A stretch of 64,000 nt of DNA from an uncultured bacterium. Its GTDB lineage: Bacteria; Acidobacteriota; Thermoanaerobaculia; Multivoradales; JAHZIX01. The position numbers were made by a program, and so were the translations under genes. Below, one piece after another: positions 1,854-47,071 of this stretch. Within the stretch, counting starts at the first letter, position 1. The number at the start of each line of letters is the position of its first letter. The DNA is taken from contig CBDUPA010000014.1 in the NCBI GenBank assembly GCA_965368975.1, positions 96,001 to 160,000 of the forward strand, written 5' to 3'. Below the pieces are notes generated by a model. It was not told the DNA's origin, did not search any database, and worked only from the letters and a program-made list of their open reading frames with translations.

Positions 1854-1916
1854 AACACAGGTGCCAGCCGAATATTTCTGCCCGGTGCAAACACAGGTGC
1901 CAGCCGAATATTTCTG
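1853..1916 (+). repeat. Perfect 28-bp direct repeat AAACACAGGTGCCAGCCGAATATTTCTG (1853-1880, 1889-1916)
   Basis: Read directly; 8-bp spacer; lies just upstream of the Y1 transposase. Confidence 0.95.
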
Positions 1917-2061
1917 ACTTTTTGCCCGGTAGGCGACATGTAGCGCCCCTGGATGTCGTCTATCTACAGACAGGCCCACCCGAAAACCATCGGCTCGGGC
2001 TCGAAAGAAAAGGAGCCTGTCATGTTTACAAGTCCTCTCTCTTGCCTGGCGGAGGCCTGAC

Positions 2062-3012
2062 GTGGGTCGCCGCCTGCGTTACATCCCCGTCGGTGGTGCC
2101 CTCGTCGAAGTCACCGCTCGCACCCTACAAGGGCGATTCTTGCTGCGTCCCACTTCCTGGGTCAACGAGGCCATTGTCGGCGTCCTGGCTCGGGGCCGTC
2201 AGAGAGAGCCGAGCGTCAAGGTGCACGCGCTCGCCTTTCTCTCTAATCACTACCACCTGCTCCTCTGGGTGCCCCACGCCAAGGCGCTGAGAACCTTCAT
2301 GGAGTTCGTCAACTCCAACCTTGCCCGTGAAATTGGCAGGTTGGTGAAGTGGCGAGAGAAGTTCTGGTCGCGCCGCTACCAACACATCGTTGTCAGTGCC
2401 GAGCCCAACGCCCAGATCGAGCGACTGCGTTACATTCTGTCTCACGGCGTCAAGGAAGACCTGGTGAAGCGAGCCGAAGACTGGCCCGGTGTCCACGGCC
2501 TGGGTTGCCTGCTACGCGGCGAGAAGCTGCAAGGCTACTGGTTCGACAGGACGGCCGAGTACAAGGCACGCCTACGGGGTGAGGACTTCGAGCGGCTCAC
2601 CTACGCGACTCCGGAAGCACTGCAGCTCGATCCGCTCCCATGCTGGCGTCACCTGAGCGTCGAGCAGCGGCAGCAGCGAGTCCGGGAGCTGGTCGAGGAG
2701 ATCGAAGTCGAGCATGCTGCCCGCAGGAGAGCGGAGCGTAAGTGGGTGCTGGGAGTCCATGCCATCAAGGCCCGCGACCCGCACGAGCATCCACGAGAAC
2801 CCAAGAAGTCGCTGGCACCTTGGTTTCATGCTGGGAGTCGAAAGGTAAGACGCGAACTCAGGCAGGCGTATGAGGTCTTCTACGAAGCCTTCCGCGAGGC
2901 CACTGACGAGCTAAGAACCGGGAACCGAGAAGCTCCGTTTCCCGAGGGGAGCCACCCGCCGGCACTACCCTTCGTCGTGCCGTCCTTGCTCGCGCGACCG
3001 CAGCCAGCCTGA
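2062..3012 (+). CDS. HUH/Y1 tyrosine transposase, REP-associated (RAYT-like)
   Basis: EVTART, LSNHYHLLL (HUH), FWSRRY, LRYILSHGVKEDLV..AEDWP (candidate catalytic Tyr helix); C-terminal extension ending FPEGSHPP. Confidence 0.85.
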   Translation: MGRRLRYIPVGGALVEVTARTLQGRFLLRPTSWVNEAIVGVLARGRQREPSVKVHALAFLSNHYHLLLWVPHAKALRTFMEFVNSNLAREIGRLVKWREKFWSRRYQHIVVSAEPNAQIERLRYILSHGVKEDLVKRAEDWPGVHGLGCLLRGEKLQGYWFDRTAEYKARLRGEDFERLTYATPEALQLDPLPCWRHLSVEQRQQRVRELVEEIEVEHAARRRAERKWVLGVHAIKARDPHEHPREPKKSLAPWFHAGSRKVRRELRQAYEVFYEAFREATDELRTGNREAPFPEGSHPPALPFVVPSLLARPQPA

Positions 3013-3438
3013 TCGCGTCGCACAACCAGATACGCTTCCTCTTCGCTGTCGCCAGCTTCAGTGCACGGGTGAGGTGTGGCCAAACGCGCCCAAGCGCAGG
3101 CACATTCCCTCCTGACTCTATGAGCCAGGCTCGGAAGGACAAGCTCGATCCAGCGTGAGGAGCGTTCTGCGCAAGCTGCCAAGCTCCCAAAGCTCGATCC
3201 GCACTCGCAAACAGATACTCCCCTGGCACCTTGAAGGGAATCTTGGACTTTCTCCGACTCCCCGAGGTGCGATAGGCTCTTGGCTGTCCATCTGGACACT
3301 CGCTCCCCCAACTCCGCCTCAATCCTTTCCTTGACCGATGACCACGAGAGCCTCGCGACGAGGCTGCCACTTCGAACCACAGCTCGATCGATCGACGCCA
3401 TCTCCCGCAGCGCGGGGATGGCCGAACAGGAGACGCCG

Positions 3439-4014
3439 ATGAACAAACCCGCACCGACCGACCATCCCGTCCACGACCTGATCCGCGATCGCTGGAGTCC
3501 GCGCGCGTTCGGCACCGGCGAGGTAGCGCAAGCACAGATCGACTCGATGATCGAAGCAGCGCGGTGGGCGGCTTCCTGCTACAACGGCCAACCGTGGCGC
3601 TACGTCGTGGGAACCCAAGGCAGCGACACCTACCGCAAGATCTTCGACGCTCTCGTCCCCTTCAACCAGGGTTGGGCACAGGCCGCTCCCGTGTTGATCC
3701 TGGCGGTAGCCAAGCTGCAGTTCGACGACGGGCGCGACAACGGCCATGCTACCTACGACACCGGCCAGGCGACCGCGCAGCTGGTACTGCAGGCCACTGA
3801 TCTGGGCCTGCGCGTCCACCAGATGGCGGGCTTTGACGCCGACAAGGCGCGCGCTGCGTTCGAGATGCCGGACGGCTTCCAGCCGATCGCCGTGTTGGCG
3901 GTCGGACAACCTGGTGATCCGTCTTCGCTACCGGAAGACCTGCAAGGCGGCGAGAACGCACCACGCGAGCGAAAGCCGGGTTCCGCCCTGATCTACGACG
4001 GCACCTGGAGCTGA
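3439..4014 (+). CDS. Nitroreductase family protein
   Basis: RWSPRAF, AARWAASCYNGQPW, YDTGQA, HQMAGFD; AGGAG RBS before ATG 3439. Confidence 0.93.
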   Translation: MNKPAPTDHPVHDLIRDRWSPRAFGTGEVAQAQIDSMIEAARWAASCYNGQPWRYVVGTQGSDTYRKIFDALVPFNQGWAQAAPVLILAVAKLQFDDGRDNGHATYDTGQATAQLVLQATDLGLRVHQMAGFDADKARAAFEMPDGFQPIAVLAVGQPGDPSSLPEDLQGGENAPRERKPGSALIYDGTWS

Positions 4015-4024
4015 ATCACAGAAG

Positions 4025-4075
4025 GCGCTACAATCTTACGGTCCGACGCCCAGGTTGTAGCGCTGATTGTAGCGC
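4025..4075. promoter_or_regulatory. Probable operator: GCGCTACAATC / GATTGTAGCGC inverted repeat plus third half-site TTGTAGCGC
   Basis: Perfect 11-bp inverted pair (4025-4035, 4065-4075) and extra copy 4055-4063, upstream of the RHH gene. Confidence 0.55.
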
Positions 4076-4141
4076 AGCCACGAAGCATTCGCACCTGAAC
4101 CACCCAGCCACCAGTCAAGTTTGCAACAGCGGAGCGTACGC

Positions 4142-4363
4142 GTGAAGACCCGAGTGACGGTGACCATCGACGACAGTTTATTGATGCTGGCCCGGCGCCA
4201 TGCCAAGGCACGGGACGAGTCGCTCTCGCAGCTGCTGGAAGCCCTGGTGGACGAGCACCTGGACAAGGACGTGGTGCTGAAGGTTCCCCTGGCACCACCC
4301 TGCCTGGAACAAGAGTGGCTCGAAGCACGAGCGAACCGGTTGGCTAAGCGCTTTCAGCGCTAG
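4142..4363 (+). CDS. Small ribbon-helix-helix (antitoxin/CopG-like) protein
   Basis: MKTRVTVTIDDSLLMLARRHA...SLSQLLEAL RHH pattern; GGAG before GTG 4142. Confidence 0.7.
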   Translation: MKTRVTVTIDDSLLMLARRHAKARDESLSQLLEALVDEHLDKDVVLKVPLAPPCLEQEWLEARANRLAKRFQR

Positions 4364-4601
4364 GCTCGAAACCCCGGCAGTCGACGACCGGCAAGCGTGG
4401 ATAGCGTGGCCAGGCGCGCTCCTTGGCACTGGCAGAGATCCCGGGCGCAGGGGTCGTATCAGCCCACGCATCCACCAAGCCGCAACGGATGAACGTCGAA
4501 CGGCCGTTGCTCATCAACCGCAGGTGACGACAGTCCGCACACAGGCCCGCGTTTGCCCGCTGCGCGTGTCGTCGCGCGGAAGTGACATCGAGTTCCGCCA
4601 T
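4344..4601 (-). CDS. Small Cys-containing hypothetical protein (putative metal-binding)
   Basis: GLCADCRH...STFIRC...PRYPRLPVVDCRGF; four Cys; downstream of the hydrolase on the same strand. Confidence 0.55.
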   Translation of the reverse strand: MAELDVTSARRHAQRANAGLCADCRHLRLMSNGRSTFIRCGLVDAWADTTPAPGISASAKERAWPRYPRLPVVDCRGFEPSAESA

Positions 4602-4642
4602 CCTGCCGGGTCCGCCCTTAGCTACTTGGACCGCGCATGGAC

Positions 4643-5692
4643 TTAAACCGCGCCATGCTGGCGTGCCCAGCGCCCCACGTGCTGGACAGCGCGCACGCCC
4701 TCGCTGAGCATGGCACCGAACATCTGCCAGCCGTGCGTCAAGCTGTCCCAAGCTTCCAGCCGCACCGAGACGCCAGCAGCGCCAGCCCGCTCCGCCAGGC
4801 GCACGGAATCGTCATACAGGATCTCTTCCGTGCCGACCTGAATCAGCATCGGTGGCATGCCGGCGAACTGTCCGAAAAGGGGCGACAGTAAGGGGTCGCG
4901 CGCATCGGCACCGTTCAGGTACGCGCCTCCCGTGCGTTCGAGCAGCCGCGGCTGCAGGACCGGATCGCGCCTCTCGCGCTCGCGCACCGAAGCGCTGCCA
5001 TGCGTCAGGTCGACCCATGGCGACATCAGCATCAACGCCGCGGCCAGCGGCACACCGTCGCGCCGGGCACGCAGCTGCGTCGACAAGCACAAGCCCCCAC
5101 CTGCCGAGTCCCCGGCCAGGGAAATGCCTTCGGTTCGACCTCCAGCGGCATCGACGATCGCCCGGTAGACAGCGTAGCAATCCTCCAGCGCTGCCGGGTA
5201 CGGCGCCTCGGGCGCTCGCCGGTACTCCACCGCCACCACACGTGCCCCGGACGACGCCGAGAGCTGGCAGCACAGCTCACGATGAGTGTTGAGCGAGCCG
5301 CTGACGAAACCACCACCGTGCAGCAGCAGCATCGCCGGGCCCTGGCCCAATGGCACCTCCGGCACATTGCCGGCCCGCACCTGCTCGACGGTCACACCCC
5401 CCAGCTGCCCGCGGTCGATGCGCGCATCCTTGGGGATCGGGTACAGCTCGGAAAACATCTCGAACTCCGAGCGAAACTGCGCGAATGGGATGTTGCCGTC
5501 GCGTTTGCGCGCCCGCTGCATCTTGAGCAAGCGGTCACGCTCCGCCGTGGCCTCAGGCGTCGGCGGCACCTCGACCACCGCTCGCGCCGGCCTACCGTCC
5601 GGCGACGGATGTGTGTAGACCAATGGAGAGGCCCCAGGCCCAACGTCCCCGGGACCGTTGCCATGATTGCTTGCATTCGACATCGACCTCAC
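4643..5692 (-). CDS. Alpha/beta hydrolase, hormone-sensitive-lipase family esterase
   Basis: HGGGF oxyanion motif, GDSAGG nucleophile, EILYDD, HGWQ. Confidence 0.93.
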   Translation of the reverse strand: MRSMSNASNHGNGPGDVGPGASPLVYTHPSPDGRPARAVVEVPPTPEATAERDRLLKMQRARKRDGNIPFAQFRSEFEMFSELYPIPKDARIDRGQLGGVTVEQVRAGNVPEVPLGQGPAMLLLHGGGFVSGSLNTHRELCCQLSASSGARVVAVEYRRAPEAPYPAALEDCYAVYRAIVDAAGGRTEGISLAGDSAGGGLCLSTQLRARRDGVPLAAALMLMSPWVDLTHGSASVRERERRDPVLQPRLLERTGGAYLNGADARDPLLSPLFGQFAGMPPMLIQVGTEEILYDDSVRLAERAGAAGVSVRLEAWDSLTHGWQMFGAMLSEGVRAVQHVGRWARQHGAV

Positions 5693-5810
5693 CCCTCCGT
5701 GATAGCATCCTGATTACTTCTTTGAGTACCGATTCTTTGCGTAAGACAACCCGCCAAGGCCCCGGCAAACGGGCCCGGAAAACGGGCCCTACAAGAGGTG
5801 AAACCCTACC

Positions 5811-7013
5811 ATGTCGCGAAGCCGCCGCACGAGCCGATCGACGCGCTCCAGCTCCCGTACAGACAGCACCAAGAAGCCCTCGACCGATGACAAGCTCGCC
5901 CCTCGACAGGCCAGCGGCGACGGCGGGTGGCCGACTCCGACGCAAGGCCCGGGGGAGACGCCCGTGGCTGTCGACGCCGATGCGCTGCGGCGGGTGGTAA
6001 CCGGCGTCTTCGAGCGCCTCGACCTGACCCCGGACGACGCCGCCGTGGCCGCAGACATCCTGGTCGAAGCCGACCTGCGCGGCATCGAATCGCACGGTGT
6101 TTCCAACTATCTCAAGCTGCTCTACGTGCCCGGCCTGCAAAGCGGCCGCATCCAGGGCCGCCCCGAGCTGACGACCGCCCACGAGACACCCGTCAGCGCC
6201 CGTCTCGACGGCGCCAAAGGACTCGGCTTGGTGGTCGGTTACCATGCCATGCGCCGTGCCATGGCCAAGGCGCGCGACGGTTTCTTCGGCTTCGTCACGG
6301 TATGCAACAGCGGTCACTACGGCATCGCCGGCTATTACGCCAGCATGGCGCTCGAAGAAGGGATGATCGGCATCTCGATGACCAACGCCGACCCGCTGGT
6401 GCTCCCGACGTTCGGCAAGGAAGCGCGCCTGGGCACCAACCCGATCAGCGTCGCGGTGCCGACCGCCGAGCGCCCACCCTACCTTCTCGACATGGCTACC
6501 AGCACCGTCGCACTGGGCAAGATCCTCAACCAGCTGCGCGGCGGCACGCCGCTGCCACAGGGCTGGGCGGCGGACGATGAAGGAATCGAGACGCACGACG
6601 CCAGCGTCGCCTGGGACGCCAAGCGCCTGCTGCCGCTGGGGGGCCAGCGCGAACAGAGCGGCCACAAAGGCTACGGCCTGGCCATGCTGGTCGACATCTT
6701 CACCGCCCTGCTCGCCGGCGGCGTGCCCAGCTACGATGTCCACCTGACGCAGCCGGTGAGCCACTTCTTCGCCGCCCTGCGCATTGACGCCTTCCGCGAC
6801 CCGGAGGAGTTCCGAGCCGACATGGACGCCTTCCTCGACCGCCTGTGTGCGACGCCGCGCGTGGCCGGCGAGGAGCGCATCTTCTACCCCGGCCTGATCG
6901 AGCACGAGACCAAGCAGCAACGCTTGCAAGACGGTATTCCGCTGCACCCACAGGTGGTCGCGGACCTACAAGGCATTGCTGACGAACTCGACGTCGACGT
7001 TCAGCTGCGCTGA
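5811..7013 (+). CDS. Ldh2 (malate/L-lactate/L-sulfolactate-type) oxidoreductase
   Basis: ADLRGIESHG, NSGHYG, LGTNPI, LDMATS, GHKGYGL motifs. Confidence 0.92.
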   Translation: MSRSRRTSRSTRSSSRTDSTKKPSTDDKLAPRQASGDGGWPTPTQGPGETPVAVDADALRRVVTGVFERLDLTPDDAAVAADILVEADLRGIESHGVSNYLKLLYVPGLQSGRIQGRPELTTAHETPVSARLDGAKGLGLVVGYHAMRRAMAKARDGFFGFVTVCNSGHYGIAGYYASMALEEGMIGISMTNADPLVLPTFGKEARLGTNPISVAVPTAERPPYLLDMATSTVALGKILNQLRGGTPLPQGWAADDEGIETHDASVAWDAKRLLPLGGQREQSGHKGYGLAMLVDIFTALLAGGVPSYDVHLTQPVSHFFAALRIDAFRDPEEFRADMDAFLDRLCATPRVAGEERIFYPGLIEHETKQQRLQDGIPLHPQVVADLQGIADELDVDVQLR

Positions 7014-7029
7014 CTGCGAGCTGCGCCAG

Positions 7030-7608
7030 CTAGCCTGCGACCAGCGACAGCAACTCGCGCGACGCCGTCTCGGCGTGCTTACCAGCGAGTTCGACGATGT
7101 CGTGCGCCCGTTCGTAGGCTGGGCAGCTCGCCTCGTAGATCGGTCGCAGCTGCTCGACGTCTTCGAGCGGATGCGGCAGGAACGGGCTGGGGTGTCGACC
7201 CTGGCGCTCTTCGCGCGCCTTGAGCTGCCATAGCGCGTTGACCAGGTCCAGCTTCAGATAGACCAGGCGCGACGCCGCCAGCACCGCATCCAGGCTGCGC
7301 GGAGCCATCAAGGCCCCCTCGCCCAGCGCAATCACCGCCGGTGGCTTGCCGTTCAGCGCGCGCCGCAACTGCTGCGACTCCAGCTGCCGCAAGCGTGTCT
7401 CGCCCTGCGTCGCCACCAGCTCCCAGATCGAGCAGCCTGCTTCGTGCTCGATCCACCGGTCGAGATCGACGAAGGTCAACCCGGTACGGCCGGCAAGCCG
7501 GTAGGCGACTTGCCGGTGCTCGCTGCCGAAGAAACCCACCACTACCAGCGGCCGCTCGAGTGCCACGGTCGCGTGATGGCTGTAGTAATCCGCAGTAGAT
7601 TCCGACAT
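7030..7608 (-). CDS. Shikimate-kinase-like protein with degenerate P-loop
   Basis: VDLDRWIEHEAGCSI, GETRLRQLE, IALGEG, RPIYE; Walker A reads GFFGSEHRQV. Confidence 0.75.
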   Translation of the reverse strand: MSESTADYYSHHATVALERPLVVVGFFGSEHRQVAYRLAGRTGLTFVDLDRWIEHEAGCSIWELVATQGETRLRQLESQQLRRALNGKPPAVIALGEGALMAPRSLDAVLAASRLVYLKLDLVNALWQLKAREERQGRHPSPFLPHPLEDVEQLRPIYEASCPAYERAHDIVELAGKHAETASRELLSLVAG

Positions 7609-8131: not shown

Positions 8132-8162
8132 GCCGCTTGATGTGCAACGGCATCGGCGCGCG

Positions 8163-15996: not shown

Positions 15997-17043
15997 ATGC
16001 GCACCGACGATTTCGACTACGTTCTGCCCCCCGAACGCATCGCCCAGCATCCCCTGCCAAGAGGTGCCAGCCGATTATTGGTGCTCGACGGCGACACCTG
16101 CAAACACCAGCAAGTGAGCGACTTACCCGAGCTTCTCCAGCCCGGCGACCTGCTCGTCGTCAACAACACCCGTGTCATCCCCGCCCGTCTCTTCGCCCAG
16201 CGCCCCGACACCGGTGGCCGCCTCGAGTTGCTGCTCCTCGAACCCGATAGCCGCGACAGCGCAACCTGGACCGCCCTCGCCAAGCCCGCCAAGAAAGCCC
16301 CACCCGGCCGCTGCTTCCAGCTGCTCGACCACGGTGGCGAACTATCAGAGATCGAGCTAGAGATCGTCGAGCGCGGCGAAGAAGGTCGCGTCCGTGTCCG
16401 CTTCTCCGAAGCGATCGAGCCGTACTTACAGCACCTGGGCCACGTCCCCTTGCCGCCCTACATCCAGCGCTGCGACGACGAGGAAGACCGCGAACGCTAC
16501 CAGACCGTCTATGCCCGCCACGACGGCTCCGTCGCGGCTCCGACGGCGGGACTGCACCTGAGTGAAAGCCTGCTGGAAGAGTTGGCGGAAGCCGGTGTGC
16601 AGACGGCGGAAGTGACGCTGCACGTCGGTATCGGAACGTTCCGTCCGGTGAACGTCGAGAAGGCGGAAGATCACCAGATGGACGCGGAGCGCTACGAGAT
16701 TTCCGAAGTAGCGGCGGCGGCGATCGAGCGGACGCGGCGGGAGGGCGGAAAGGTCGTGGCGGTGGGAACGACGGTGGTGCGGACGCTCGAAAGTGCGGCG
16801 CGCGAGGATGGGACGGTGCAGACTGGAACCGGGTCGACGCGGTTGTACATCCGTCCGGGTTTCGAATTTCGCGTCGTGGATCGGTTGCTGACGAATTTTC
16901 ACCTGCCGAAGTCGACGCTGCTGATGTTGGTGAGTGCTTTGGCGGGGCGGGAGCGGGTGCTGGCGGCGTATGCGGAGGCGGTCGAGAGGGAGTATCGGTT
17001 TTATTCGTATGGGGATGCGATGTTGGTGGGGCGAGAGGGGTGA
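15997..17043 (+). CDS. queA: S-adenosylmethionine:tRNA ribosyltransferase-isomerase
   Basis: FDYVLP, NNTRVIPARL, PLPPYI, YQTVYA, AAPTAGLH, TNFHLPKSTL, YSYGDAM. Confidence 0.98.
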   Translation: MRTDDFDYVLPPERIAQHPLPRGASRLLVLDGDTCKHQQVSDLPELLQPGDLLVVNNTRVIPARLFAQRPDTGGRLELLLLEPDSRDSATWTALAKPAKKAPPGRCFQLLDHGGELSEIELEIVERGEEGRVRVRFSEAIEPYLQHLGHVPLPPYIQRCDDEEDRERYQTVYARHDGSVAAPTAGLHLSESLLEELAEAGVQTAEVTLHVGIGTFRPVNVEKAEDHQMDAERYEISEVAAAAIERTRREGGKVVAVGTTVVRTLESAAREDGTVQTGTGSTRLYIRPGFEFRVVDRLLTNFHLPKSTLLMLVSALAGRERVLAAYAEAVEREYRFYSYGDAMLVGREG

Positions 17044-35536: not shown

Positions 35537-37855
35537 ATGGCCGGTAACCCAGACAACCCCCAAGACCCACGTCTCGGCGTCAGCCGCGAGCTAGCCGAGC
35601 TGCTGACCCGTCCGGATGGCCTGCGCACCGCGCGCCTGCTGGAGCTGGCGGGTATCTTGCGCAGCTCAGGCTCCGTCGACCTCCCCATGCCAGCCGAGTC
35701 TTCGCCCGGCGGCCAGCGAGCCGCCGAGCCCGACGCACCGCGTCCCATCCGCATCTGGACGCCCGAGACGCGCACCAGCGCGGACGGCACGAGTGAGGGC
35801 GCCCGCAGCGAGACCGTCTTCGTGCGTCCCGAACCCGGCCCCTTCGGTGACCACCACGCACAGCGGCTCGAGATTCCGGCGCGCAAGCCGGCCGGCACCC
35901 TGCGCATCGGCTGGTTCGGCGAGAGCGCTGCCGCCGGTTACCTCTACGCCCCGCACATCACGCCGGCGCAGATCCTCGAGCAGTACCTGGACGCCGCCGC
36001 CGTACCCAACCCGGACAGCGCCAGCTCGGCAGGTGAACGTCGTCGCTTTGATGTCGTCGACCTGGCACGCACCAACGAAACCCTCGACGACCTGCTGCGC
36101 ACTGCCGAAGCCGCCCTGGCACAGCTCGACCTCGACGCCGCGGTGGTGTTCACGGGCAACAACTGGAAGCTGCTGGAAACGCCCGACGTCTCGCCCTACC
36201 TGCCCAACATCCGTGCGCGTCAACGCTATGCCCTCGCCCTGCGTTCCGCCGGCCTCGCCGGTCCGCCACGGCTGGCCGAGCGGCAGCTGGAGCGTAAGGT
36301 CACGAGCTTCTTCGACCGGCTCGCAGCCCTCGTATCTGGTCACGGGGTACCGGCCGTGATCGTCATCCCCGAGGTCAACCACGTCGACTGGGAAAGCCGT
36401 CAGCCCGTCCCCTGGCTGCCCGGCGACGGCGTCGCGAAGTGGTACGCCGCCTACGAGCGCGCCGTCACCCTGCTGACCGAAGACCTGGGCACCGCCTCTC
36501 TCGCAGAGGACGATCCGCGCGACTTCGCCGCCATCCTCGAAGCCTGCCACGAGATGCTCGATCTCGACGGCGGTCGGTGCGCCACCAGCCACCGCCTGCG
36601 CGCGCGGGCCCTGCTCGGCCGCGGCAAGATCAAGAAGGCGCGCCAAGCCATCCGCGACGAAGTCGACGCCGCCGGCATCGGCCTGCTCGCCTTTCTCGAC
36701 GCACCCCGCCTGGGCGGTCATGGGTTGGAACTGCTGCGCGCCGCCACCAAGGACCACGGCTTCGCCGCCGTCGACCTGCCCAACCTCTTCGCCGCCGACG
36801 CCGAAGCCACCGACCGGCAGCACTTCCTCGACTACTGCCACCTCACCCTCGCCGGCCTGCAACGCGCCCTCGCCGCCACCGCCGCTGTGACCCTGCGCAC
36901 CCTCGACGTCCCCCGCGACGTGTCCAAGCTGGCACCACCGCCGGCCGTCGAGCTCGCTCCCGCCCACGAAGCCTTGGCACACCTCGGCGCCGCCATCCAC
37001 AGCGCCCACCGTCTGCTCACCACCGGACCGCGCGGCCCCCTGCTCCAACACTGGTGCCGCCACGCCCTCGAAACCGATCCGTCGATCGCCGCCACCTTCG
37101 TCGACCTGCTCGAAGCCCGCTGCGCCACCCCCCTCCCCGCCGTCCTCACCGCCGCGCAGCAGCGCAACCGCAGTAGCGAGCACGTCCTGCACCACGCCCA
37201 CGGCTGGCGCTGGAACGACCTCGACGCGGACGTCCTGCTAGCGCTGTGCCGGGCCCTGGAAGCGCACGCGTCGACGTCCGAGCAGCCGCTCGACCCTCGT
37301 CTCGAAAGTACCTCCCCCGGCGAGTTCTTGGTCCACGCCCTGTCCGCGCACCGTCCGACCGACGGCGACTACCTCGACCTGACCCAATCTCCCTACCGCT
37401 GGCAGCCACTCGAACGCTTCTACCCCGAAGCCATGGATCTAGACGGCCCCGCCGGTCATGCCACCTACCGCTGCCCATGGCCCGAAGCGTCGTTCTGCCT
37501 CCCCATCCCGGCGGAAAACAAGCCCGAGCACGTCCAGCTGGAACTCACCGTCCGTCTTCCCCCGATTCCGGGCCTGGACGACGTGCAGCGTGAAGGCAAC
37601 CTGAGCGTCTACCTGGACGGGCGCCGGCTGGTGGACGCGGAGCTGAGCAAGGCATGGAGCAAGGTGCGCGTCGAGGTGCCAGCCGAACGTCTCCACCCCG
37701 GCCTCGCCCGCCTCAGCCTGCGCTGGCCGATGCCGCCACCGGTCGGCGAAGAGGCCTTGGACGCTGCGATCCAGCGGCTGGAGCAGGGGATCGAGGCGGA
37801 TGTGCACCCTGTCTTCGGGGAGATCTACTCGATCCGGGTCTGGTTCGAAGGCTGA
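35537..37855 (+). CDS. Large SGNH/GDSL-like hypothetical protein
   Basis: FGESAAAG (block I-like), TGNN, FLDYCHL (DxxH). Confidence 0.6.
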   Translation: MAGNPDNPQDPRLGVSRELAELLTRPDGLRTARLLELAGILRSSGSVDLPMPAESSPGGQRAAEPDAPRPIRIWTPETRTSADGTSEGARSETVFVRPEPGPFGDHHAQRLEIPARKPAGTLRIGWFGESAAAGYLYAPHITPAQILEQYLDAAAVPNPDSASSAGERRRFDVVDLARTNETLDDLLRTAEAALAQLDLDAAVVFTGNNWKLLETPDVSPYLPNIRARQRYALALRSAGLAGPPRLAERQLERKVTSFFDRLAALVSGHGVPAVIVIPEVNHVDWESRQPVPWLPGDGVAKWYAAYERAVTLLTEDLGTASLAEDDPRDFAAILEACHEMLDLDGGRCATSHRLRARALLGRGKIKKARQAIRDEVDAAGIGLLAFLDAPRLGGHGLELLRAATKDHGFAAVDLPNLFAADAEATDRQHFLDYCHLTLAGLQRALAATAAVTLRTLDVPRDVSKLAPPPAVELAPAHEALAHLGAAIHSAHRLLTTGPRGPLLQHWCRHALETDPSIAATFVDLLEARCATPLPAVLTAAQQRNRSSEHVLHHAHGWRWNDLDADVLLALCRALEAHASTSEQPLDPRLESTSPGEFLVHALSAHRPTDGDYLDLTQSPYRWQPLERFYPEAMDLDGPAGHATYRCPWPEASFCLPIPAENKPEHVQLELTVRLPPIPGLDDVQREGNLSVYLDGRRLVDAELSKAWSKVRVEVPAERLHPGLARLSLRWPMPPPVGEEALDAAIQRLEQGIEADVHPVFGEIYSIRVWFEG

Positions 37856-38549: not shown

Positions 38550-38563
38550 AGCCACGACCTCGC

Positions 38564-39928: not shown

Positions 39929-40015
39929 GGGTGCCTCCTAGGATCGAACACAAGGTCTGAGTGAGGTATCGAGCATACCAGGGAAAAGGCAGTCATTAGG
40001 AAAGGGGGGAATCCA

Positions 40016-40127
40016 GATGCGGCTACGCCGCAGGGTAGGCTCAGATTCGGATCCACGCTCTGGGTAGGGGCGACCACATCGGACCGCGCCCCTACGACTG
40101 GACAGGCGCCCCTACGACCGGACAGGC
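40016..40127. repeat. Composite REP-like element with GTAGGGGCG...CGCCCCTAC palindrome and 20-bp tandem duplication
   Basis: Inverted repeat 40064-72/40087-95; second CGCCCCTAC 40107-15; hairpin GCGGC-TAC-GCCGC within 40016-31. Confidence 0.8.
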
Positions 40128-43100
40128 ACCCAGCGCACCGCCAACCCCGACGCCTCGTAGATCCGCTTGCCGTCGACCCACAAGGAAGCATCGGCAACGG
40201 TCAGGGTACCGTCTTCAGCTACTTCAGTGACCTCGACCTCGACGACCACCTTGCGGTTGTGCGGCAGCACTTGGCCTCGATACTTCCAGCTGAACTCGCG
40301 GCCGATGGCAGGCGCCTGGAAGCGACGTTCCTCGAGCCCCTTCCCGCCTGTGCCAGCTACGACCGCGAAGCGCAGCAGCTGGAGCAGGGCTTCGAGGCCA
40401 AGCGAGCCGGGCTGGACCGGATCCTGGTAGAAGTGAGCGGCGAAGAACCAGGCGGTCGGGTCGACGTCGAACTCGGCGCGCGCGCGCCCCAGGCCGGCGT
40501 CACCGCCTTGCGGCCACCAGCCGGTGACGCGATCGAGCAAGCGCAGACGACCACGGGCGAGACCGGCACCACCACCTTCGTCGTTCACGAACCACCCTTC
40601 CGGCTCGCGGGTCAGGTCGAGCGACGCAAAGGCCGGATCTCCGCCATCGGCGTCCGCGGGCAGTTCGAGGCGTGCGCGTTGGGCGTCGGTGGTCGGCAGG
40701 CCGGCCTGGTCGGCGAGCGCGGCGGCGGGGAAGAAGCCGAAGGCCGTCTGCATGGTGAACACCGGCTCTTTGCCGTTGGCAGTATCCCGCTCCATGCGCA
40801 CGTCGAAACGCTCGATGATCGAGCTGCCCGAACGCGCGACGCCGACCAGTTCCGTGCGTGTCGAGACGGTTCCTTGTGTCGAGCGAGGGTCCTCACCGGC
40901 CCGCAACTCGGCATGAACGGTGCCGGTGCCGTCGAGGTTGCGGAAGTGCAGATTCTCGCTGGAATGCAGTGTGCTCCCCACATAGGAAGCCAGCCAGCCG
41001 CACGGCTGCAGGCCGGTCTCCATGAGCAGCGCGAAGGGCAGGGCACCCGTGCCGCCTTCGGGGACGAAGTCGTCCTCGGGAAACAGTCTCTCGGCGCGCG
41101 CATGCGGTAGATCGTAGTCGAGGGTCGCAGCATAGCGCTGACGCAGCCCGGCGCTGGGGTCGAGCGTGCCTTGCTCGCCGTCGATCTCGACCACGCGCGA
41201 GAGGCAGTGGTACGGCGGCCCGGGCAGGCGCGGCGTGCGGCGGTCGGCAGCGTCGAAACGGATGAAGGGCGCGCCGAAGGCGGCGGAGGGGGCTCCCCAG
41301 GCGGAAGCGAGGAGGGCGGCGCCGTCGAAGGTGTGGGCATCGCTCTGGCCGGGCCGCACCGTGACCGGTGGCCGCGCGGTCGGCGGCAGCGCCACCGCGG
41401 TATGCAGGCGTTCCGGAGCGCTCGAGAGTGGCTGGTCGGGCACCAGGCGCAGGCCGACGCGGCGGCCGTGGAAGGCTTTCAGGCCGTCGACGGTGCACAG
41501 CAGGTCGGCCCATAGCGTAGGGCCACACTGCGGATTCGACGGGTCGACGATGTCGACCTGGTGCACGAACACCTCGTAGACCAGCTGCTTCGACGTCGGG
41601 ATCACCTGCCCACGGCAGCGCAGCGGGTAGGCGACTTCCGGCACCGGCTCGAAGCGCCAGCCGTCACGGTCGAGGGTGTAACCGAGGGCGGCGAGCACCA
41701 ACGCCATGGTGTTGAGACAACCTTCGAACATGACGGTGCCGGGCATGCACGGATCGTTCTTGAAGTGACCGTCGAAGATCCAGCTGTCGCCGTCGCCGAT
41801 GTCCAGCTCGGCGCGCAGATAGCCGCGTCCCCAGGGGCCGCCTTGGATGTCGAGATCGGTCACGCGGTCGAGCAGCAGCAATGGCGGTGCCGGGATCGAG
41901 GGCGTGCGCACATGCGTCGCGGCGCGGGCGTACGCCGAGCCGAGGGCGGCGGCACCCCTGCCTCGGGCGAAGTCGAGGAGCTGGTCTTTGCTCAGCTGGC
42001 GTGGAATCAACGCGGCTTCCACGCACGGAACGGGTGGCGTGTAGGTCTCCGGCGACGGCGTGTCCGTGGACGCATCCCACAGCAGCCCGCCCGAGTCGGC
42101 AAGTTCCTGGTCGGTGAAGAAACCAGCCTGGCCACCGCGCACGGACAGCCGACGCGCGCCATCAATGCGGCAATCGTAGTGGAAGAAGAAAAGGCGCACA
42201 TCGCCTTGCTTGGCGTGGCCGTCGATGTGGATGTCGTAGGCCAGCGTCTCCCCGACCGCCGGGGGTCGGCCATGGTAGGTCAGGTCGCAGCCGAGCAAGC
42301 GGTAGACGCGCTCGCCCTGGTTCAGGAAATCGACGCCGAGCCAGGAGATCAGCGTCAGGTCGGCCTGCCCGGCCTCGATCATCAAGCCAGCGGGCATGCG
42401 ACCGTCGTGTAGGTACCAGGAGTCCTCGCGCACGTCGGTCTCGGTCCAGATGGTGCCGGTGCCCATGGAACCAGCTTCGGCGTCGATACCGGTGATGCGG
42501 TCGACGAGCAGGAAGGGCGGCTCGGGCAGACGTACCTGGCGCGGGTAGGCATCCTGGCGGCGGAAGAGGTCGCCGAAGACGGTCGAGATGCGGCCAGAGG
42601 CGAGCTCGAGCAATTGGGCGCGGTCGAAGGCCGGACCGCGGGGCGGTGGGACGGCAGGATCGACTGGGCCAATGGACGGTGGTGTCGTTTGGGGGTCGGA
42701 TGCGGCTACGCCGCTAGGCACCCACGGGGGGATCTCCTTACCCGCATGGGGATCCGAACTCTGTGCAGGGGCACCCCACTGTGAGTGCCCTGGGCGGATG
42801 GGCGGTTCCGCATGCGGCATCCTCTCCGCCTCCGCCCCCAACATGCCTGCCAACATCCCTTGCTGCACCGCCAAGAACCGCTCGTGCAGCTGGCTCTGTT
42901 GCGCCAAGAACTCCTGCTGTGCGCGGGCGATGCTGGCTTGCAGATGCTGCAGTTCGTCGAGGTGCGGGGAGGTCGGATTTGGCTGCGGTCGATATTCGGC
43001 TGGCACCTCCTGAGGCAGCACCTCTCGAGGCAACACCTTCTGAGGCAGAGCGGCTCCTCGATACTCGGCTGGCACCTCTCCGAGGACGGGTGGTAGAACG

Positions 43101-46100
43101 GGTGCGGGGGCCATGATCTGGACGTTGGCCTCGGCCGCGGACACGGACGACATGGGGGCCTCCTGCTCCTGGTTCGACAAGCTAGCCACGGGCGGCCAGT
43201 GGGCGGGGAAGGTGAGACGATGCTGGGGCAAGGCGGCGGCGGTCGGCAGGGTCAAGGCGCTCAGGGCCAAGGCGCTCAGGGTCAAGGCACTGTAGTCGCC
43301 CGCGACGCCGGCGGCCAGGAGTTGCGCGGCGGCCTCGACGGTGGCACGCAGGCCGCGGGCGCCATCACTGGTGGATGCGCGGGCGGACAAACGCCGACGG
43401 TCGAGCGGCACGGCGAGGAAGGACTCCTCGGGCACGCCGTCGGCGAGCAGGGTCTTGCGAATCCAGCTGCTGCACAGGCCGCGCGGGCCGTGCTCCAGGA
43501 AGACGCGCACACCGTCTGCATAGGCTCGGCGCACGACGCGGCGGAAGTCGAGGGTGTCGGCGGCCTGGGCCAGGATCGCCTGGGCGGCGCTTTCGCGATC
43601 GGGACGGTAGGGGGCGGCCTTGGCTCCCGAGTACAGGCGCACCGCTGCGCCGTCCCGCTCCAGCGCCTCGGGCCGCGTCGGCAGGCGGTGCAAGTCGAGC
43701 CAGGCATCGGCGACGTCGCGCACTTGCGGGCAGTGGACGACCATGCGGTAGTCGAGCGGCACGCCGGTGACGTCCAGGGCGTCGAGGACGCGGCGGCAAG
43801 CGGCTTGATCGCCACCGAGAACAGCATCCTCGGGACTGCTGATCAGCGTCAGGTGGACCAGGCCACCCTGCGCCACTTCGGTCTCGACGGCGGCCCGCAC
43901 GGCGTCGACGGGCGCGCTCAGCTGGTAGTTCATCCAGTGGATGGTCTGCTCACCGTCCTTGACGGGCGTCAGCACGCGGCACTCGCCGCACAGGTCGCGG
44001 CTCAGCAGCTCGCCGGCTTCGCTGGCCAGCACCAGCTGGTCGACGTCCGGCCAGACGCCCGTCGCGACCAGGGAGTTGGTCTCACCCGAGGAGTAGCCGA
44101 GTACGGCGTCGGGCTGCAGGCCGAGCAGGCCACGGCTCAGTTCGGTGTGCAGCTGACACAGGAATGAGGTACCCCAGAGCAGCTGCAAGGGATCGGGGGC
44201 TTCCTCCGTCTGCCCGTAGACCCAGGCTGCCGCGCGGGGCAGTTCGCGGCTGCGAGCTTCGAGGCGGTCGAGCAAGGATGGGAACGTCGCGAGCAACCCG
44301 GCGCCCATCTCGGGGTAGGCCGCGCCGCCACCGGTGTAGACGAAGGCGAGTTGGCCAGCGTCAGAATCGTCTTGCCCAACCAGGGAACCCTGCCCGACCA
44401 GGGGTCGCTCGCGGAAGGCCATACCGGCTGGCAAACGACCGGTACCTTGTTGCAACCAGGAGGCCGCCTGGCTGCGCCGCGTGGCAAGGTCGTCTTCACT
44501 GTCGGCGACCAGCACCAGGCGGGCAGGGTCATTCGTCGTCACGGCGGCTCGCTGATCGCGCTGCAGCCGCTGGAGGACTTCGCCGCGATCGGTACCGCTG
44601 TAGAGCACCAGACCTGGACGCACTCCGGACGGTGTCGCTCCGAACGGTGTTGCTCCGAACGGTGTTGCTCCGAACGGTGGCGCCCCGTCCGCGGCCTGGA
44701 GCTGGACGGTCCCGGAGGCACCCGTCAGGGCTTCGACACGCACCTCGGCGATTCGGCTCCGCGCGCCGGACGGCAGCAGCCATGGACGCCCAACCTTCGA
44801 ATGCCCGGCCGCACCGCCGAAACACCTTCGACGGTGCAGCGCCTGGACGGCCGCCGCGACCTGCAACAGACCGGAAGCGGCATGGGCGTGTCCAAAGCGA
44901 GCGGTTACGGCGTCTGTATCGGAGTCGGTACCGAGTGTGAACCGCGCTATATCGTGCTCTATCGCAGGCTCCCCCACCTCGTGGCTTCCGAGCACGGCCA
45001 GCACCGGCTCACCCAGCCGGCGGGCATCGGCCAGGCGCCGCAACACCAGCACGACGGCGGCATCTCCTCCTCGACGCGGACTTCCAGCCGGCAACAGAGC
45101 CTCGAGCACCGCTTGTTGCACCGGCTCGCCGGCCACCACGTCGACGGCACCGACGACCGCGGCGTCCAGCTCACCGTGACGCAGCGCCTGCGCCGCCACG
45201 CGTAGCGCTTCGATACCGGAGAGTTCTTCCGCCGCCACCACCGCGCTGCCGCCGCGCAGGTCGAACTGCTGGTTGAGCCGGTTGGCGGGGATGTTCGGCA
45301 TCGTGCCGACGACACCGGCGGCATGCAGCTCGGGCACGGCCGCCAAGCATCCTGGATGCTCGTGACCGTGACGCCAGCGCAGGCCATAGCGCGCGATCTC
45401 GGCATCCACCTGCAGACCGACCAGCACGCCCGTCCTGTCGGGTGGCAACTCCAGACCGCCCCCGCTCGCCTCGGCATTGCCATCCAGCAACCGCCGGGCC
45501 GCCTGCAACAAGAGCAGCTGCTGCGGTAGCGCTTGTTCGAGGTCGCGCGGCGGGAAGCGCAGACCGGCGAGCTCGAGCTCGACCTGCTGTCGAGCCGGCA
45601 GTCTGTCTGGTGGGGGGGCTTCGAGCGCAGCCACGAAGTCGTCGACGCCGCGTCCCTCTCCCGCCAGCACCTCGAGCGCGACGATGGCGACGGGCTCCGA
45701 TGTGGCAGTGACGGGTACCTGGTCCGGCGGCCGCAATGGCGCCTTCAGACGGGGCGGTGCCTTCGGCCGGTACTCCTCCACCAGCAAGTGAGCATTGTTG
45801 CCACCGAAGCCGAAGGCGCTGAGCGCCGCCAGGCGGGGCGCGTCCTGCTCGGGCCAGGGCTCGGGCTCGCTGAGCAGACGGAAGGGCGTACCGTCAAAAG
45901 CCGGGGTCGGATCGTCAGCGGCGTGCAAGCTGGGCGGCCGCGTGCCGTGCTCGAGGGCACCGAGCACCTTGAGCAGGCCGGCCATGCCGGCGACGGTGAT
46001 CAGGTGACCGAGGTTGGACTTGAGCGAGCCGAGAGCAATGGGTTCGACCGCGGAACCAGCGCCATCGCGCGTGTAGACGGCGGCCAGCGACTGCAGTTCG

Positions 46101-47071
46101 GTGGCGTCGCCGACGCGGGTGCCGGTGGCATGGCACTCGATCAACGACACGTGCGCGGGCGTGCGACCAGCCGTGGCGTAGGCGGCATGTAGGGCGCGCT
46201 GCTGACCTTCTGTCGACGGCGCTAGCAAGCCACGGCCGCGCCCGTCGTTGGACAGGCCAATGCCGCGCAGCACGCCCAAGATCGGGCGCCCGGCGGCGAT
46301 GGCGTCGTCGAGTCGCTGCAATACGACGCAGGCAGCCCCCTCGGCGGGCAGCAGGCCGTCGGCATCCCGGTGGAACGGTCGGCTCTGGCCGCTCGGGCTG
46401 AGCGCCTCGAGGGCGGTAAAGCCGATGTGCAGGAAGAGGTCGTCGGCACAGGAGACGGCACCCGCCAGCATGATGTCGGCACTGCCCTCGCGCAGGCGGC
46501 GGCAGGCGAATTCGAGTGCGTAGAGCGAGGAGGCGCAGGCCGCGTCAAGGCAGAAAGCACCGGCACCAAGACCCAGGATGTCGGCGAGCAGGTGCGCGGG
46601 CAAGCCGGCGCTGCAACGGTCGCGCGCGTCGAGGTGCGAGGTGTCTTTGCCGCGCCAGACGGCCTCGGCGAATCGGCTGGCACCTAGCGTCGGGAACATC
46701 AGATTGCCGAAGACAGCTCCGGTACGCGTTCCCGCGGTTCCGCTCACGCCGACCTCAGCGGCCTCCACACCCGCCTCCTCCAGCGCCTGACGGGCGGCGC
46801 GCAACAACCAGTGAAAGAGTGGGTCGAGCCCGTCGACCGCCGGCTCGTGCACCGTCTCGTGGATGTACCCGCCGCGATCGTGCCAGGCACGGTCCCGCAG
46901 GGATGGCTTGTCTCCACCGACACGTGAGGGCAAGACGCGCTCGGGGTCGAGCCCCCAGCGGCCCGCCGGCGCCTGGCTCACCAGGTCTCGGCCGGCAGCA
47001 ACGGCTTGCCACAGCGCGGCCGGGTCCGGCGCACCGGGCAGCACGCAGCCACGGCCGACGATGGCAATCAT
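40112..47071 (-). CDS. PUFA-synthase-like subunit KS-CLF-AT-FabA-type DH domains (PfaBC / myxobacterial Pfa3 type)
   Basis: DAACASS, ECHATGT, LGHLIT; CLF-like region; AT GYSSG; GHFKNDPCMPG and HFYQDPVQPG dehydratase motifs. Confidence 0.92.
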   Translation of the reverse strand: MIAIVGRGCVLPGAPDPAALWQAVAAGRDLVSQAPAGRWGLDPERVLPSRVGGDKPSLRDRAWHDRGGYIHETVHEPAVDGLDPLFHWLLRAARQALEEAGVEAAEVGVSGTAGTRTGAVFGNLMFPTLGASRFAEAVWRGKDTSHLDARDRCSAGLPAHLLADILGLGAGAFCLDAACASSLYALEFACRRLREGSADIMLAGAVSCADDLFLHIGFTALEALSPSGQSRPFHRDADGLLPAEGAACVVLQRLDDAIAAGRPILGVLRGIGLSNDGRGRGLLAPSTEGQQRALHAAYATAGRTPAHVSLIECHATGTRVGDATELQSLAAVYTRDGAGSAVEPIALGSLKSNLGHLITVAGMAGLLKVLGALEHGTRPPSLHAADDPTPAFDGTPFRLLSEPEPWPEQDAPRLAALSAFGFGGNNAHLLVEEYRPKAPPRLKAPLRPPDQVPVTATSEPVAIVALEVLAGEGRGVDDFVAALEAPPPDRLPARQQVELELAGLRFPPRDLEQALPQQLLLLQAARRLLDGNAEASGGGLELPPDRTGVLVGLQVDAEIARYGLRWRHGHEHPGCLAAVPELHAAGVVGTMPNIPANRLNQQFDLRGGSAVVAAEELSGIEALRVAAQALRHGELDAAVVGAVDVVAGEPVQQAVLEALLPAGSPRRGGDAAVVLVLRRLADARRLGEPVLAVLGSHEVGEPAIEHDIARFTLGTDSDTDAVTARFGHAHAASGLLQVAAAVQALHRRRCFGGAAGHSKVGRPWLLPSGARSRIAEVRVEALTGASGTVQLQAADGAPPFGATPFGATPFGATPSGVRPGLVLYSGTDRGEVLQRLQRDQRAAVTTNDPARLVLVADSEDDLATRRSQAASWLQQGTGRLPAGMAFRERPLVGQGSLVGQDDSDAGQLAFVYTGGGAAYPEMGAGLLATFPSLLDRLEARSRELPRAAAWVYGQTEEAPDPLQLLWGTSFLCQLHTELSRGLLGLQPDAVLGYSSGETNSLVATGVWPDVDQLVLASEAGELLSRDLCGECRVLTPVKDGEQTIHWMNYQLSAPVDAVRAAVETEVAQGGLVHLTLISSPEDAVLGGDQAACRRVLDALDVTGVPLDYRMVVHCPQVRDVADAWLDLHRLPTRPEALERDGAAVRLYSGAKAAPYRPDRESAAQAILAQAADTLDFRRVVRRAYADGVRVFLEHGPRGLCSSWIRKTLLADGVPEESFLAVPLDRRRLSARASTSDGARGLRATVEAAAQLLAAGVAGDYSALTLSALALSALTLPTAAALPQHRLTFPAHWPPVASLSNQEQEAPMSSVSAAEANVQIMAPAPVLPPVLGEVPAEYRGAALPQKVLPREVLPQEVPAEYRPQPNPTSPHLDELQHLQASIARAQQEFLAQQSQLHERFLAVQQGMLAGMLGAEAERMPHAEPPIRPGHSQWGAPAQSSDPHAGKEIPPWVPSGVAASDPQTTPPSIGPVDPAVPPPRGPAFDRAQLLELASGRISTVFGDLFRRQDAYPRQVRLPEPPFLLVDRITGIDAEAGSMGTGTIWTETDVREDSWYLHDGRMPAGLMIEAGQADLTLISWLGVDFLNQGERVYRLLGCDLTYHGRPPAVGETLAYDIHIDGHAKQGDVRLFFFHYDCRIDGARRLSVRGGQAGFFTDQELADSGGLLWDASTDTPSPETYTPPVPCVEAALIPRQLSKDQLLDFARGRGAAALGSAYARAATHVRTPSIPAPPLLLLDRVTDLDIQGGPWGRGYLRAELDIGDGDSWIFDGHFKNDPCMPGTVMFEGCLNTMALVLAALGYTLDRDGWRFEPVPEVAYPLRCRGQVIPTSKQLVYEVFVHQVDIVDPSNPQCGPTLWADLLCTVDGLKAFHGRRVGLRLVPDQPLSSAPERLHTAVALPPTARPPVTVRPGQSDAHTFDGAALLASAWGAPSAAFGAPFIRFDAADRRTPRLPGPPYHCLSRVVEIDGEQGTLDPSAGLRQRYAATLDYDLPHARAERLFPEDDFVPEGGTGALPFALLMETGLQPCGWLASYVGSTLHSSENLHFRNLDGTGTVHAELRAGEDPRSTQGTVSTRTELVGVARSGSSIIERFDVRMERDTANGKEPVFTMQTAFGFFPAAALADQAGLPTTDAQRARLELPADADGGDPAFASLDLTREPEGWFVNDEGGGAGLARGRLRLLDRVTGWWPQGGDAGLGRARAEFDVDPTAWFFAAHFYQDPVQPGSLGLEALLQLLRFAVVAGTGGKGLEERRFQAPAIGREFSWKYRGQVLPHNRKVVVEVEVTEVAEDGTLTVADASLWVDGKRIYEASGLAVRWVPVRS

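Follow-up and report, generated by a model that had tools for sequence, protein, structure and literature searches.

What connects a 13-nucleotide (nt) word beside a transposase gene with exact copies of the same word inside protein-coding genes? The question is raised by a stretch of 64,000 nt (the window) from an uncultured bacterium of the class Thermoanaerobaculia (phylum Acidobacteriota, order Multivoradales), i.e., positions 96,001 to 160,000 of contig CBDUPA010000014.1 in assembly GCA_965368975.1. Here, the non-palindromic word AGGTGCCAGCCGA lies next to a gene for a Y1 HUH transposase and recurs in genes such as queA and a very large open reading frame (ORF) of the polyketide synthase (PKS) type. 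The assembly (G000) comprises 7.13 Mb in 59 contigs with 65.4% GC, and the contig (C14; window G000:C14:96001-160000) has a length of 194 kb, equivalent to 2.7% of the genome. Our analysis indicates that the word is probably the conserved core of a terminal inverted repeat (TIR) and the presumed recognition word of a TIRYT/RAYT-like family of Y1 HUH transposases, and that it has probably spread locally and partly in place.

A preceding sequence-only reading of the window had listed seven exact copies of the word, two of them beside the HUH transposase gene, and all seven were recovered where it had placed them (Table 1). It had estimated 0.005 chance copies per window; in 100 dinucleotide shuffles, the word appeared 0.01 times on average and never more than once vs the 7 copies observed. 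With up to 2 mismatches allowed, 12 matches were found in the window vs 3.43 expected. The two copies beside the gene form a tandem repeat with a unit of 36 nt and precede the transposase, which starts with GTG, by 203 and 167 nt. Several copies had been described as extended, and indeed five of the seven continue with [A/T/G]TAT, while those at 37674 and 46673 do not; the extension specific to G000 reads WTATYG. The earlier list omitted a degenerate inverted copy, AGGTGCCAGGGGA, on the far side of the gene.

Throughout G000, 21 exact copies of the word were counted. Raw counts of 13-mers are uninformative by themselves, because 1,728 other words reach at least 21 copies, mostly owing to the repeated domains of non-ribosomal peptide synthetases (NRPS) and PKS, and permutation, neighbor, and codon-aware nulls were used instead. 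The reversed word is present once, 40 permutations of the word reach a mean of 0.5 and a maximum of 3 copies, and its 39 single-mismatch neighbors occur 0 to 5 times each. Sub-words of up to 9 nt are at expectation, and an order-8 Markov expectation, obtained by hand arithmetic from sub-word counts, amounts to approximately 1.5 copies. For the codon-aware null, the expectation was derived from the actual peptides and the codon usage of G000 over a crude set of 3,027 ORFs (76.5% of the genome). Against this null, 15 genic copies were observed vs 1.40 expected (Poisson p 3e-11), and the frame encoding GASR alone holds 3 copies vs 0.015 expected at 56 compatible sites. A genome-wide count against a codon-preserving null had been proposed along with the original observation, a lack of enrichment being named as the outcome that would speak against it; since the genic copies exceed their expectation so clearly, this objection falls away.

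The flanks of the copies are unrelated to each other beyond approximately 19 nt. When the transposase flanks and the queA patch were compared with the G000 genome by blastn-short, nothing common was found beyond 17 to 19 nt, and a longer mobile unit around the word was rejected on this basis. As a post-hoc curiosity, the tandem unit and queA have the 9-mer TGCAAACAC in common, which occurs 14 times in G000; among the 21 copies of the word, only those of the tandem pair and queA have its 7-nt core CAAACAC within a distance of 100 nt.

The protein encoded beside the tandem pair carries the features of the Y1 HUH superfamily, namely the HUH motif, a single downstream tyrosine, and the family profile and fold. 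It scores 25.2 bits against the Pfam family Y1_Tnp (cut-off 23) and 43 bits against the NCBIfam model REP_Tyr_transpos (NF047646), which is below the cut-off of 80. In all 18 aligned homologs (46-72% identical), H63, H65, and Y124 are invariant, and the C-terminal half is also conserved. Y124 is located approximately 60 residues past the HUH motif in a predicted helix (115-126), a spacing that suggests it to be the catalytic tyrosine; the motif around it reads YILSHG and not Y---NP as in class 2. An AlphaFold2 model was obtained with a pLDDT of 83, and its best Foldseek match was 4ER8, the E. coli RAYT bound to a repetitive extragenic palindromic (REP) element (E 4.8e-6), over the N-terminal ~160 residues. 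Foldseek returned 22 matches at E <= 0.001, and among the matches listed all were Y1 transposases, led by 4ER8, ISDra2, and IS608 TnpA. A sequence search of the PDB gave no relative of the protein.

G000 holds few paralogs of the transposase (72-74% identical). A stretch of 23 nt is identical between window positions 1953-1975 and G000:C10:160684-160706, approximately 1.6 kb upstream of the paralog on contig C10 (E 2e-5), and might mark an outer boundary of transposase cassettes. Within the transposase ORF itself, an antisense near-word (the first 10 of the 13 bases) covers the conserved KKS[LP]AP codons at window 2806-2820 on the minus strand; the same near-word is found in the paralogs on C10 and C6.

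The tie between the word and the transposase, claimed from the window alone, is well supported by the homologous genes of other genomes. The family is known from a single order of Acidobacteriota, with homologous loci assigned to the class Thermoanaerobaculia and some to Holophagales. A total of 24 homologous transposase loci were surveyed with their flanks for the word or a close variant. The word was found upstream in direct orientation in 18 of the 24 loci, and in 18 loci it was found in inverted orientation 208-280 nt past the stop codon, at a near-constant spacing. When 12 downstream regions were aligned, the end of the inverted word, TGGCACCT, was the only conserved block, with 3 columns invariant and 7 nearly so; it stands in register in 10 of the regions and is displaced in two. 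This results in a cassette consisting of the direct word, the transposase gene, about 230 nt of spacer, and the inverted word, a form that the window follows, with the exact word twice before the gene and AGGTGCCAGGGGA in inverted orientation at +210. An RNA between the stop codon and the inverted word was considered and dropped, as an Rfam search of window positions 1500-3600 returned no family and the ~230-nt spacer is not conserved.

Of the 31 genomes of the order, 26 contain homologs of the transposase, usually several per genome. The exact word is enriched in seven of the 31 (G000 21, G007 34, G025 37, G015 19, G021 15, G008 14, and G013 10 copies), and the remaining genomes hold 0-4 exact words at 0-1 copies of the reversed control; the five genomes without a transposase match hold 1-4. 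Variants of the word differ within its final five bases, predominantly at positions 9-10; those ending in CACCCGA or CAGGCGA are enriched only in particular genomes: AGGTGCCACCCGA reaches 31 copies in G006, 24 in G023, and 20 in G025, and AGGTGCCAGGCGA reaches 88 in G013 and no more than 6 in any other genome. Transposase genes flanked by these variants were found in G023, G008, and G013, and, as read from coordinates, in G028. Outside the order, four word variants remained at background, i.e., at the level of the reversed control with at most 6 copies (151 genomes of the phylum; 139 of other orders or classes). The tally of 151 includes the unpublished G078, on which no claim rests.

Copies of the word are also concentrated around the transposase gene. 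C14 holds 10 of the 21 exact copies in G000 (p 6e-11), or 7 of 16 if independent loci are considered (p 1e-7), and these span from -62 kb to +45 kb of the transposase start. One-mismatch copies are unclustered, with 2 of 63 on C14. On C6, a further exact copy is 1.7 kb away from a fragment of a transposase gene, and in G007, 13 exact copies are found within about 28 kb (C1:1051485-1079418) around a transposase gene. In the relatives, many copies are arranged in tandem arrays or inverted pairs, and the inverted pairs fold as long hairpins (z -6.2 and -5.6). The copies in the window fold no better than shuffles on either strand (z about +0.3 to +0.7), and hairpins at these copies were rejected on these scores.

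The word also forms micro-tandem arrays, whose periods range from 13 to 36 nt. Arrays of this kind, made of complete or partial words, were observed at G000:C14:73823-73848, L016:1120-1180, and L015:1278-1330. One array consists of two directly adjoining words (period 13 nt), and an array in G015 shows GAAGAGGTGCC four times, followed by the full word. Such arrays suggest repeated cutting and joining, or slippage, at the word. A promoter function was considered as well. The reverse complement of the word contains TGGCAC, the -24 element of sigma-54 promoters; this candidate was discarded, as TTGCA follows it only between the two copies of the tandem pair, one base beyond the consensus spacing, and the other copies have no -12 element.

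With regard to the genes, 11 of the 21 copies in G000 are sense, 6 antisense, and 3 intergenic, and 1 is ambiguous at an N-terminus, as judged from the Pfam domains of the covering ORFs and their translations. The genic share of 17-18 of 21 is about the level of random placement. Sense copies are found in queA, a ketosynthase (KS) domain, a PKS linker (twice), a 772-aa ORF, a MacB/FtsX permease, a hydantoinase, a GSDH-domain protein, an OmpR-TPR regulator, and an NRPS (twice). Antisense copies are found in an FG-GAP/ASPIC protein, an M14 peptidase, the C-terminus of a major facilitator superfamily transporter, an FG-GAP/phospholipase C protein, a trypsin-like protease, and a ComA/ComB fusion. 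The sequence-only reading had stated that all five intragenic copies are sense and use two frames. This holds for the window (5/5), where queA and the KS domain read xxA GGT GCC AGC CGA and the copies at 37674, 42996, and 43065 read xAG GTG CCA GCC GAx, but not for the genome as a whole, where the excess of sense over antisense copies is not significant (11 vs 6, binomial p 0.33) and five of the six frames are used (GASR, EVPA[DE], SAGT, FGWHL, and RLAP). The EVPA[DE] frame, GAG GTG CCA GCC GAx, spans exactly 15 nt and accounts for 7 of the 11 sense copies. That the copies in queA and the KS domain force rare codons was confirmed against the codon usage of G000 itself, in which AGA and CGA represent 2.1% and 8.4% of the arginine codons, TTA, CTA, and TTG 0.4%, 3.9%, and 12% of the leucine codons, and GGT 21% of the glycine codons. 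Genic copies are not restricted to G000: all eight word-bearing ORFs tested in G007, G025, and G015 contain Pfam domains, among them an S1/P1 nuclease, a GT4 glycosyltransferase, an alanine racemase, a molybdopterin enzyme, and PhoU, and in 5 of the 8 the word is located inside the domain envelope.

Whether such copies were inserted or written in place can be judged from orthologous sites. In queA, the site reads AGA GGT GCC AGC CGA TTA TTG (RGASRLL), and in 27 orthologs it reads RGx[S/A]R[L/M][L/F], gap-free and with common codons, e.g., CGC GGC GAG AGC CGC CTG CTG. None of the 27 carries the exact word there, and compared to the closest ortholog pattern G000 shows approximately 7 mostly synonymous differences, all toward the word and its WTATYG extension. 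The FtsX permease site is gap-free in 5/5 homologs with 2-5 mismatches to the word, the trypsin-like protease site in 3/3 close homologs with 3-5 mismatches, and the M14 peptidase site in 4/4 with 4-6 mismatches. In the M14 peptidase, the word has changed the protein sequence, since five residues differ from the homologs (FGWHL in G000 vs [VH]G[CYF]R[RFL]). Thus, the idea that near-matches were converted to the word agrees with these four genes, in which the relatives carry near-matches at the orthologous sites and not the word itself. For the KS domain, the only counterparts found in five relatives are 30-35% identical, with no close ortholog among them. The ComB-type phosphatase site was matched in 0/5 genomes, and the EVPAEY site of the GSDH-domain protein lies in a variable region with unreliable alignment gaps. 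As an observation on queA as such, its codons mostly end in C in the first half, as on the coding strands of the genome, and mostly in G in the second half, with a switch at ~16540 where the 2-kb GC skew flips too; the gene is intact, its Pfam match spans the whole protein, and it is possibly a recombinant gene or an assembly chimera.

The findings can be read in other ways, which differ in what they make of the genic copies. It is highly improbable that only the copies flanking the transposase are meaningful and that the genic ones are a coincidence of common peptides (GASR, EVPAE) and codon usage. The many 13-mers of equal abundance in G000 and the ordinary frequency of sub-words up to 9 nt would be in line with such a coincidence, and C29:84 and C29:3567, situated in one giant NRPS ORF, could be paralogous repeats. 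However, this explanation is already contradicted by the codon-aware null, including that for the GASR frame, and the copies share neither their flanks beyond ~19 nt nor related host gene families. A host chromosomal signal, such as a protein site or a Chi-, uptake-, or KOPS-like sequence that is kept by selection and was borrowed by the cassettes as their end, would account for the sharp preference for the exact word over its 39 one-mismatch neighbors. The word also remains unchanged in several families of the order, as if under functional constraint, and it is genic, present in all orientations, and non-disruptive in the manner of uptake and Chi sequences. The sequence-only reading had offered such an uptake- or Chi-like signal as an option, but the copies are counted in tens (10-37 per genome, in 7 of the 31 genomes of the order, with 0-4 in the others), are patchy among relatives, and fall to background in the 139 genomes that represent other orders and classes within the phylum. 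Moreover, half of the copies in G000 lie within 62 kb of the transposase gene, sister words with two positions changed replace the word elsewhere beside the transposase genes that carry them, and along G013:C1 the orientation is mixed in blocks, with no replichore-like polarity. A host signal therefore appears improbable, if less so than mere coincidence.

In the main rival reading, the genic copies arose when a very short mobile unit of ~13-15 nt or multiples thereof was inserted in frame in the ordinary way. Nothing would have been overwritten, and the copies would be comparable to Rickettsia palindromic elements and intragenic REPs that are tolerated in loops and linkers. We regard this as unlikely, with several observations in its favor. 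The hydantoinase is longer by 5 codons than 3/3 close orthologs at or beside the word, the predominant EVPA[DE] frame comprises 15 nt, and several of its copies occupy places outside domains (the linkers of the PKS and of the OmpR-TPR regulator, and the N-terminal part of the GSDH-domain protein). Micro-tandem arrays of the word exist, and intragenic REP insertions are documented in those parts of PMC3733652 and PMC6006769 on which we draw here. On the other hand, no change in length was found in queA, the FtsX permease, the M14 peptidase, or the trypsin-like protease, in the M14 peptidase residues were replaced and not added, and the hydantoinase can equally be read as an in-place word combined with a separate gain of 15 nt.

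Several points weigh against the reading of the word as the TIR core of a transposase that spreads it partly in place. At the hydantoinase (G000:C8:84986, L079), the 5 additional codons may reflect a 15-nt insertion rather than a conversion; the loop also varies in length a few residues upstream, and it is equally plausible that the word replaced RASS-like codons in place and that 15 nt were gained separately. All ortholog comparisons involve relatives outside the genus, so that the gain events are neither dated nor polarized. The flanking words differ between both ends in L001, L017, and L023, i.e., covariation is imperfect, and the C10 paralog in G000 has no upstream word. An exact word adjoining a transposase gene was confirmed in five of the seven word-rich genomes, the exceptions being G015 and G021. 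Some genomes are rich in homologs and almost devoid of exact words (G001 with 12 matches and 0 words, G005 with 38 and 2), for which we conjecture other cognate words. In other genomes, only 16 of 56 copies near transposase genes and 10 of 37 singletons in G013 appear coding-like by two crude classifiers, whose fractions are rough, the first having called 3 known genic sites of G000 non-coding. The mostly genic pattern of G000 may thus be unusual, because the copies elsewhere look mostly intergenic. Finally, we infer word binding, cleavage position, and strand alike, and we know of no HUH mechanism for the exchange of a 13-21 nt segment in place.

In the sequence of events that we propose for the TIR core and its transposase, the enzyme would bind the word and cut and rejoin single-stranded DNA there, in the way that IS608 TnpA and the E. 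coli RAYT act on their respective sites. Site-specific cutting and rejoining of single-stranded DNA, typically at replication forks, is established for Y1 enzymes (see PMC6006769). New copies would arise preferentially near the transposase's own gene, i.e., mainly in cis. Some of them would be formed as tandem or inverted intergenic units, others by exchange of a 13-21 nt segment at near-cognate sites, by which coding DNA would be overwritten, and purifying selection would then retain only those with tolerated peptides (the GASR, EVPA[DE], SAGT, FGWHL, and RLAP of G000). The exact copies in conserved genes hint at an enzyme able to overwrite short coding stretches in this way, and the segment exchange, being without known precedent, carries most of the uncertainty.

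For better comparison with known systems, two papers are central, Di Nocera et al. (2013; PMC3733652) and Quentin et al. (2018; PMC6006769), both used for the portions that our comparison covers. The sequence-only reading had suggested an undescribed HUH system. However, TIRYTs and TIRtrons (PMC3733652) and the atypical-repeat classes 2.6 and 3 (PMC6006769) have already been described, and the system is not a new category, since among published kinds its cassette architecture most resembles TIRYT/TIRtron and RAYT/REP. TIRYTs were defined as tyrosine transposases with non-REP TIRs, some of which form dispersed families, and comprise an Acidobacteria group (PMC3733652); they correspond to subclass 2.1 of TnpA-Y1 (PMC6006769). 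Like these, the locus features a Y1 HUH transposase that is longer than IS200 TnpA and bounded by non-REP TIRs, TIRs in moderately abundant dispersed families that occur as singles, dimers, and clusters, and an NHYH that fits the NH[YF]H motif of subclass 2.1. In contrast, neither AGGTGCCAGCCGA nor any of its variants contains GGGGWSAS, a motif common to most of the TIRs published so far, and YILSHG stands in place of the Y---NP of class 2. The portions compared, with the TIR figure and the supplements outside the comparison, contain no order-wide 13-nt word, no variants that track genomes, and no in-place genic copies.

The atypical repeats of subclass 2.6 and class 3, found in Acidobacteria and Planctomycetes, are likewise weakly structured and without GT[AG]G, and class 3 has a 5' CnGA foot, while the word here ends in CCGA (PMC6006769). 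Repeats of both are sometimes dispersed, and the authors see them as intermediate between insertion sequence and REPtron (PMC6006769). Class 3 proteins differ in having ~178 residues, NHVH, and YV[VI]xEQ (PMC6006769). With its 316 residues, NHYH, and YILSHG, the protein of the window therefore fully fits none of the tabulated TnpA-Y1 signatures. Rickettsia palindromic elements and intragenic REPs resemble the genic copies in that repeat members reside in functional ORFs with the frame kept, often in loops or linkers (PMC3733652, PMC6006769), and REPs inside genes are listed as insertions in PMC3733652. Those elements, however, insert 20-80 residues, whereas at least 4 genic copies here add nothing and overlay homologous codons.

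The RAYT/REP systems (REPtrons) are similar in the structural match to 4ER8, in a gene flanked by cognate repeats in inverted orientation, in few diverged paralogs per genome (72-74% identity in G000), and in a repeat and transposase that seem to co-vary; the inverted word pairs of the relatives form hairpins like REPIN doublets. They differ in that the word is non-palindromic and without a GTAG foot, its copies in the window are unfolded, copy numbers are in the tens (21 in G000, 10-88 in relatives) and not in the hundreds, and the RAYT score of 43 is below the cut-off of 80. REPs are extragenic; by contrast, the word in G000 is mostly genic. Uptake sequences (DUS/USS), Chi, and the cyanobacterial HIP1 are exact short words that stand in place in genes in several frames and are maintained at the DNA level, and words of the uptake, Chi, and KOPS type occur in hundreds to thousands of copies, chromosome-wide, common to close relatives, and often polar. 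The word described here shares the exact, in-place occurrence in several frames, but it is orders of magnitude rarer, patchy, and clustered at the transposase, and its sister words are tied to transposase paralogs. From IS200/IS605 elements, with subterminal hairpins, no TIRs, and near-identical copies, the locus differs in the inverted words that bound the gene, in the lack of a hairpin at the ends in the window, and in paralogs of 72-74% identity. Literature searches for the word (as a 12-mer) and for TIRYT gave no other treatment among the matches listed, the TIR figures and supplements of PMC3733652 lying outside the search, and nothing related was retrieved for Thermoanaerobaculia in combination with transposase and repeat.

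The features of the window are summarized in Table 1. The sequence-only reading had labeled the gene around the copy at 37674 SGNH-like; as the 772-aa ORF matched no family in a Pfam search, this label is unconfirmed. The three minus-strand copies are located in the first of two adjacent, very large ORFs (2319 and 2265 aa) that occupy positions 40112-53865 of the minus strand. The 2319-aa ORF contains KS, KS C-terminal, and FabA-like domains, resembles synthases of polyunsaturated fatty acids (PUFA), and has no close orthologs in five relatives from the family or order.

Table 1. Transposase gene and copies of the word in the window (positions counted from the first nucleotide of the window).
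Feature	Position	Strand	Remarks
Exact word, tandem unit 1	1859..1871	+	Intergenic, directly 3' of the stop of the MgtC/DUF4010 ORF 594-1853
Exact word, tandem unit 2	1895..1907	+	No hairpin on either strand (z +0.28, +0.42)
Y1 HUH transposase, 316 aa, TIRYT/RAYT-like	2062..3012	+	NHYH at residues 62-65; candidate catalytic Y124
Degenerate inverted word AGGTGCCAGGGGA, right-hand terminal repeat	3219..3231	-	210 nt past the transposase stop
Exact word in queA (15997-17043)	16062..16074	+	Sense, in place; Pfam Queuosine_synth 1.2e-131
Exact word in the 772-aa ORF 35537-37855	37674..37686	+	Sense, EVPAE frame
Exact word in an inter-domain linker of the 2319-aa PKS/PUFA-type ORF 40112-47071	42996..43008	-	Sense, EVPAEY
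Exact word in the same PKS linker of ORF 40112-47071	43065..43077	-	Sense, EVPAEY; 69 nt from the copy at 42996
Exact word in the N-terminal ketosynthase domain of ORF 40112-47071	46673..46685	-	Sense, CTA GGT GCC AGC CGA = LGASR

How RAYT-like enzymes copy repeats of the REP or TIR type is still unknown. In the present system, such a repeat consists of no more than a non-palindromic word of 13 nt, whose variable bases seem to track transposase paralogs, and a few oligonucleotides would therefore suffice to test protein-DNA specificity. What was not to be expected is the occurrence of in-place copies in genes. Should the genic copies be no more than tolerated micro-insertions, the locus would be a tidy new member of the TIRYT/REP world from a poorly studied phylum. 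A further-reaching claim, which we advance tentatively and consider rather doubtful, is that a Y1 HUH transposase rewrites chromosomal DNA in a natural, sequence-directed manner, mostly within tens of kb of its own gene, by swapping near-cognate segments of 13-21 nt for its exact recognition word. If true, this rewriting would impose runs of rare codons, as in queA, or new residues, as with FGWHL in the M14 peptidase, on conserved genes at unchanged gene length; it would represent the spread of a mobile element without insertion and a candidate programmable short-patch DNA editor. An enzyme that makes such in-place copies would allow its element to spread by overwriting, and would thereby reshape codon usage, and occasionally protein sequence, in the vicinity of its gene.

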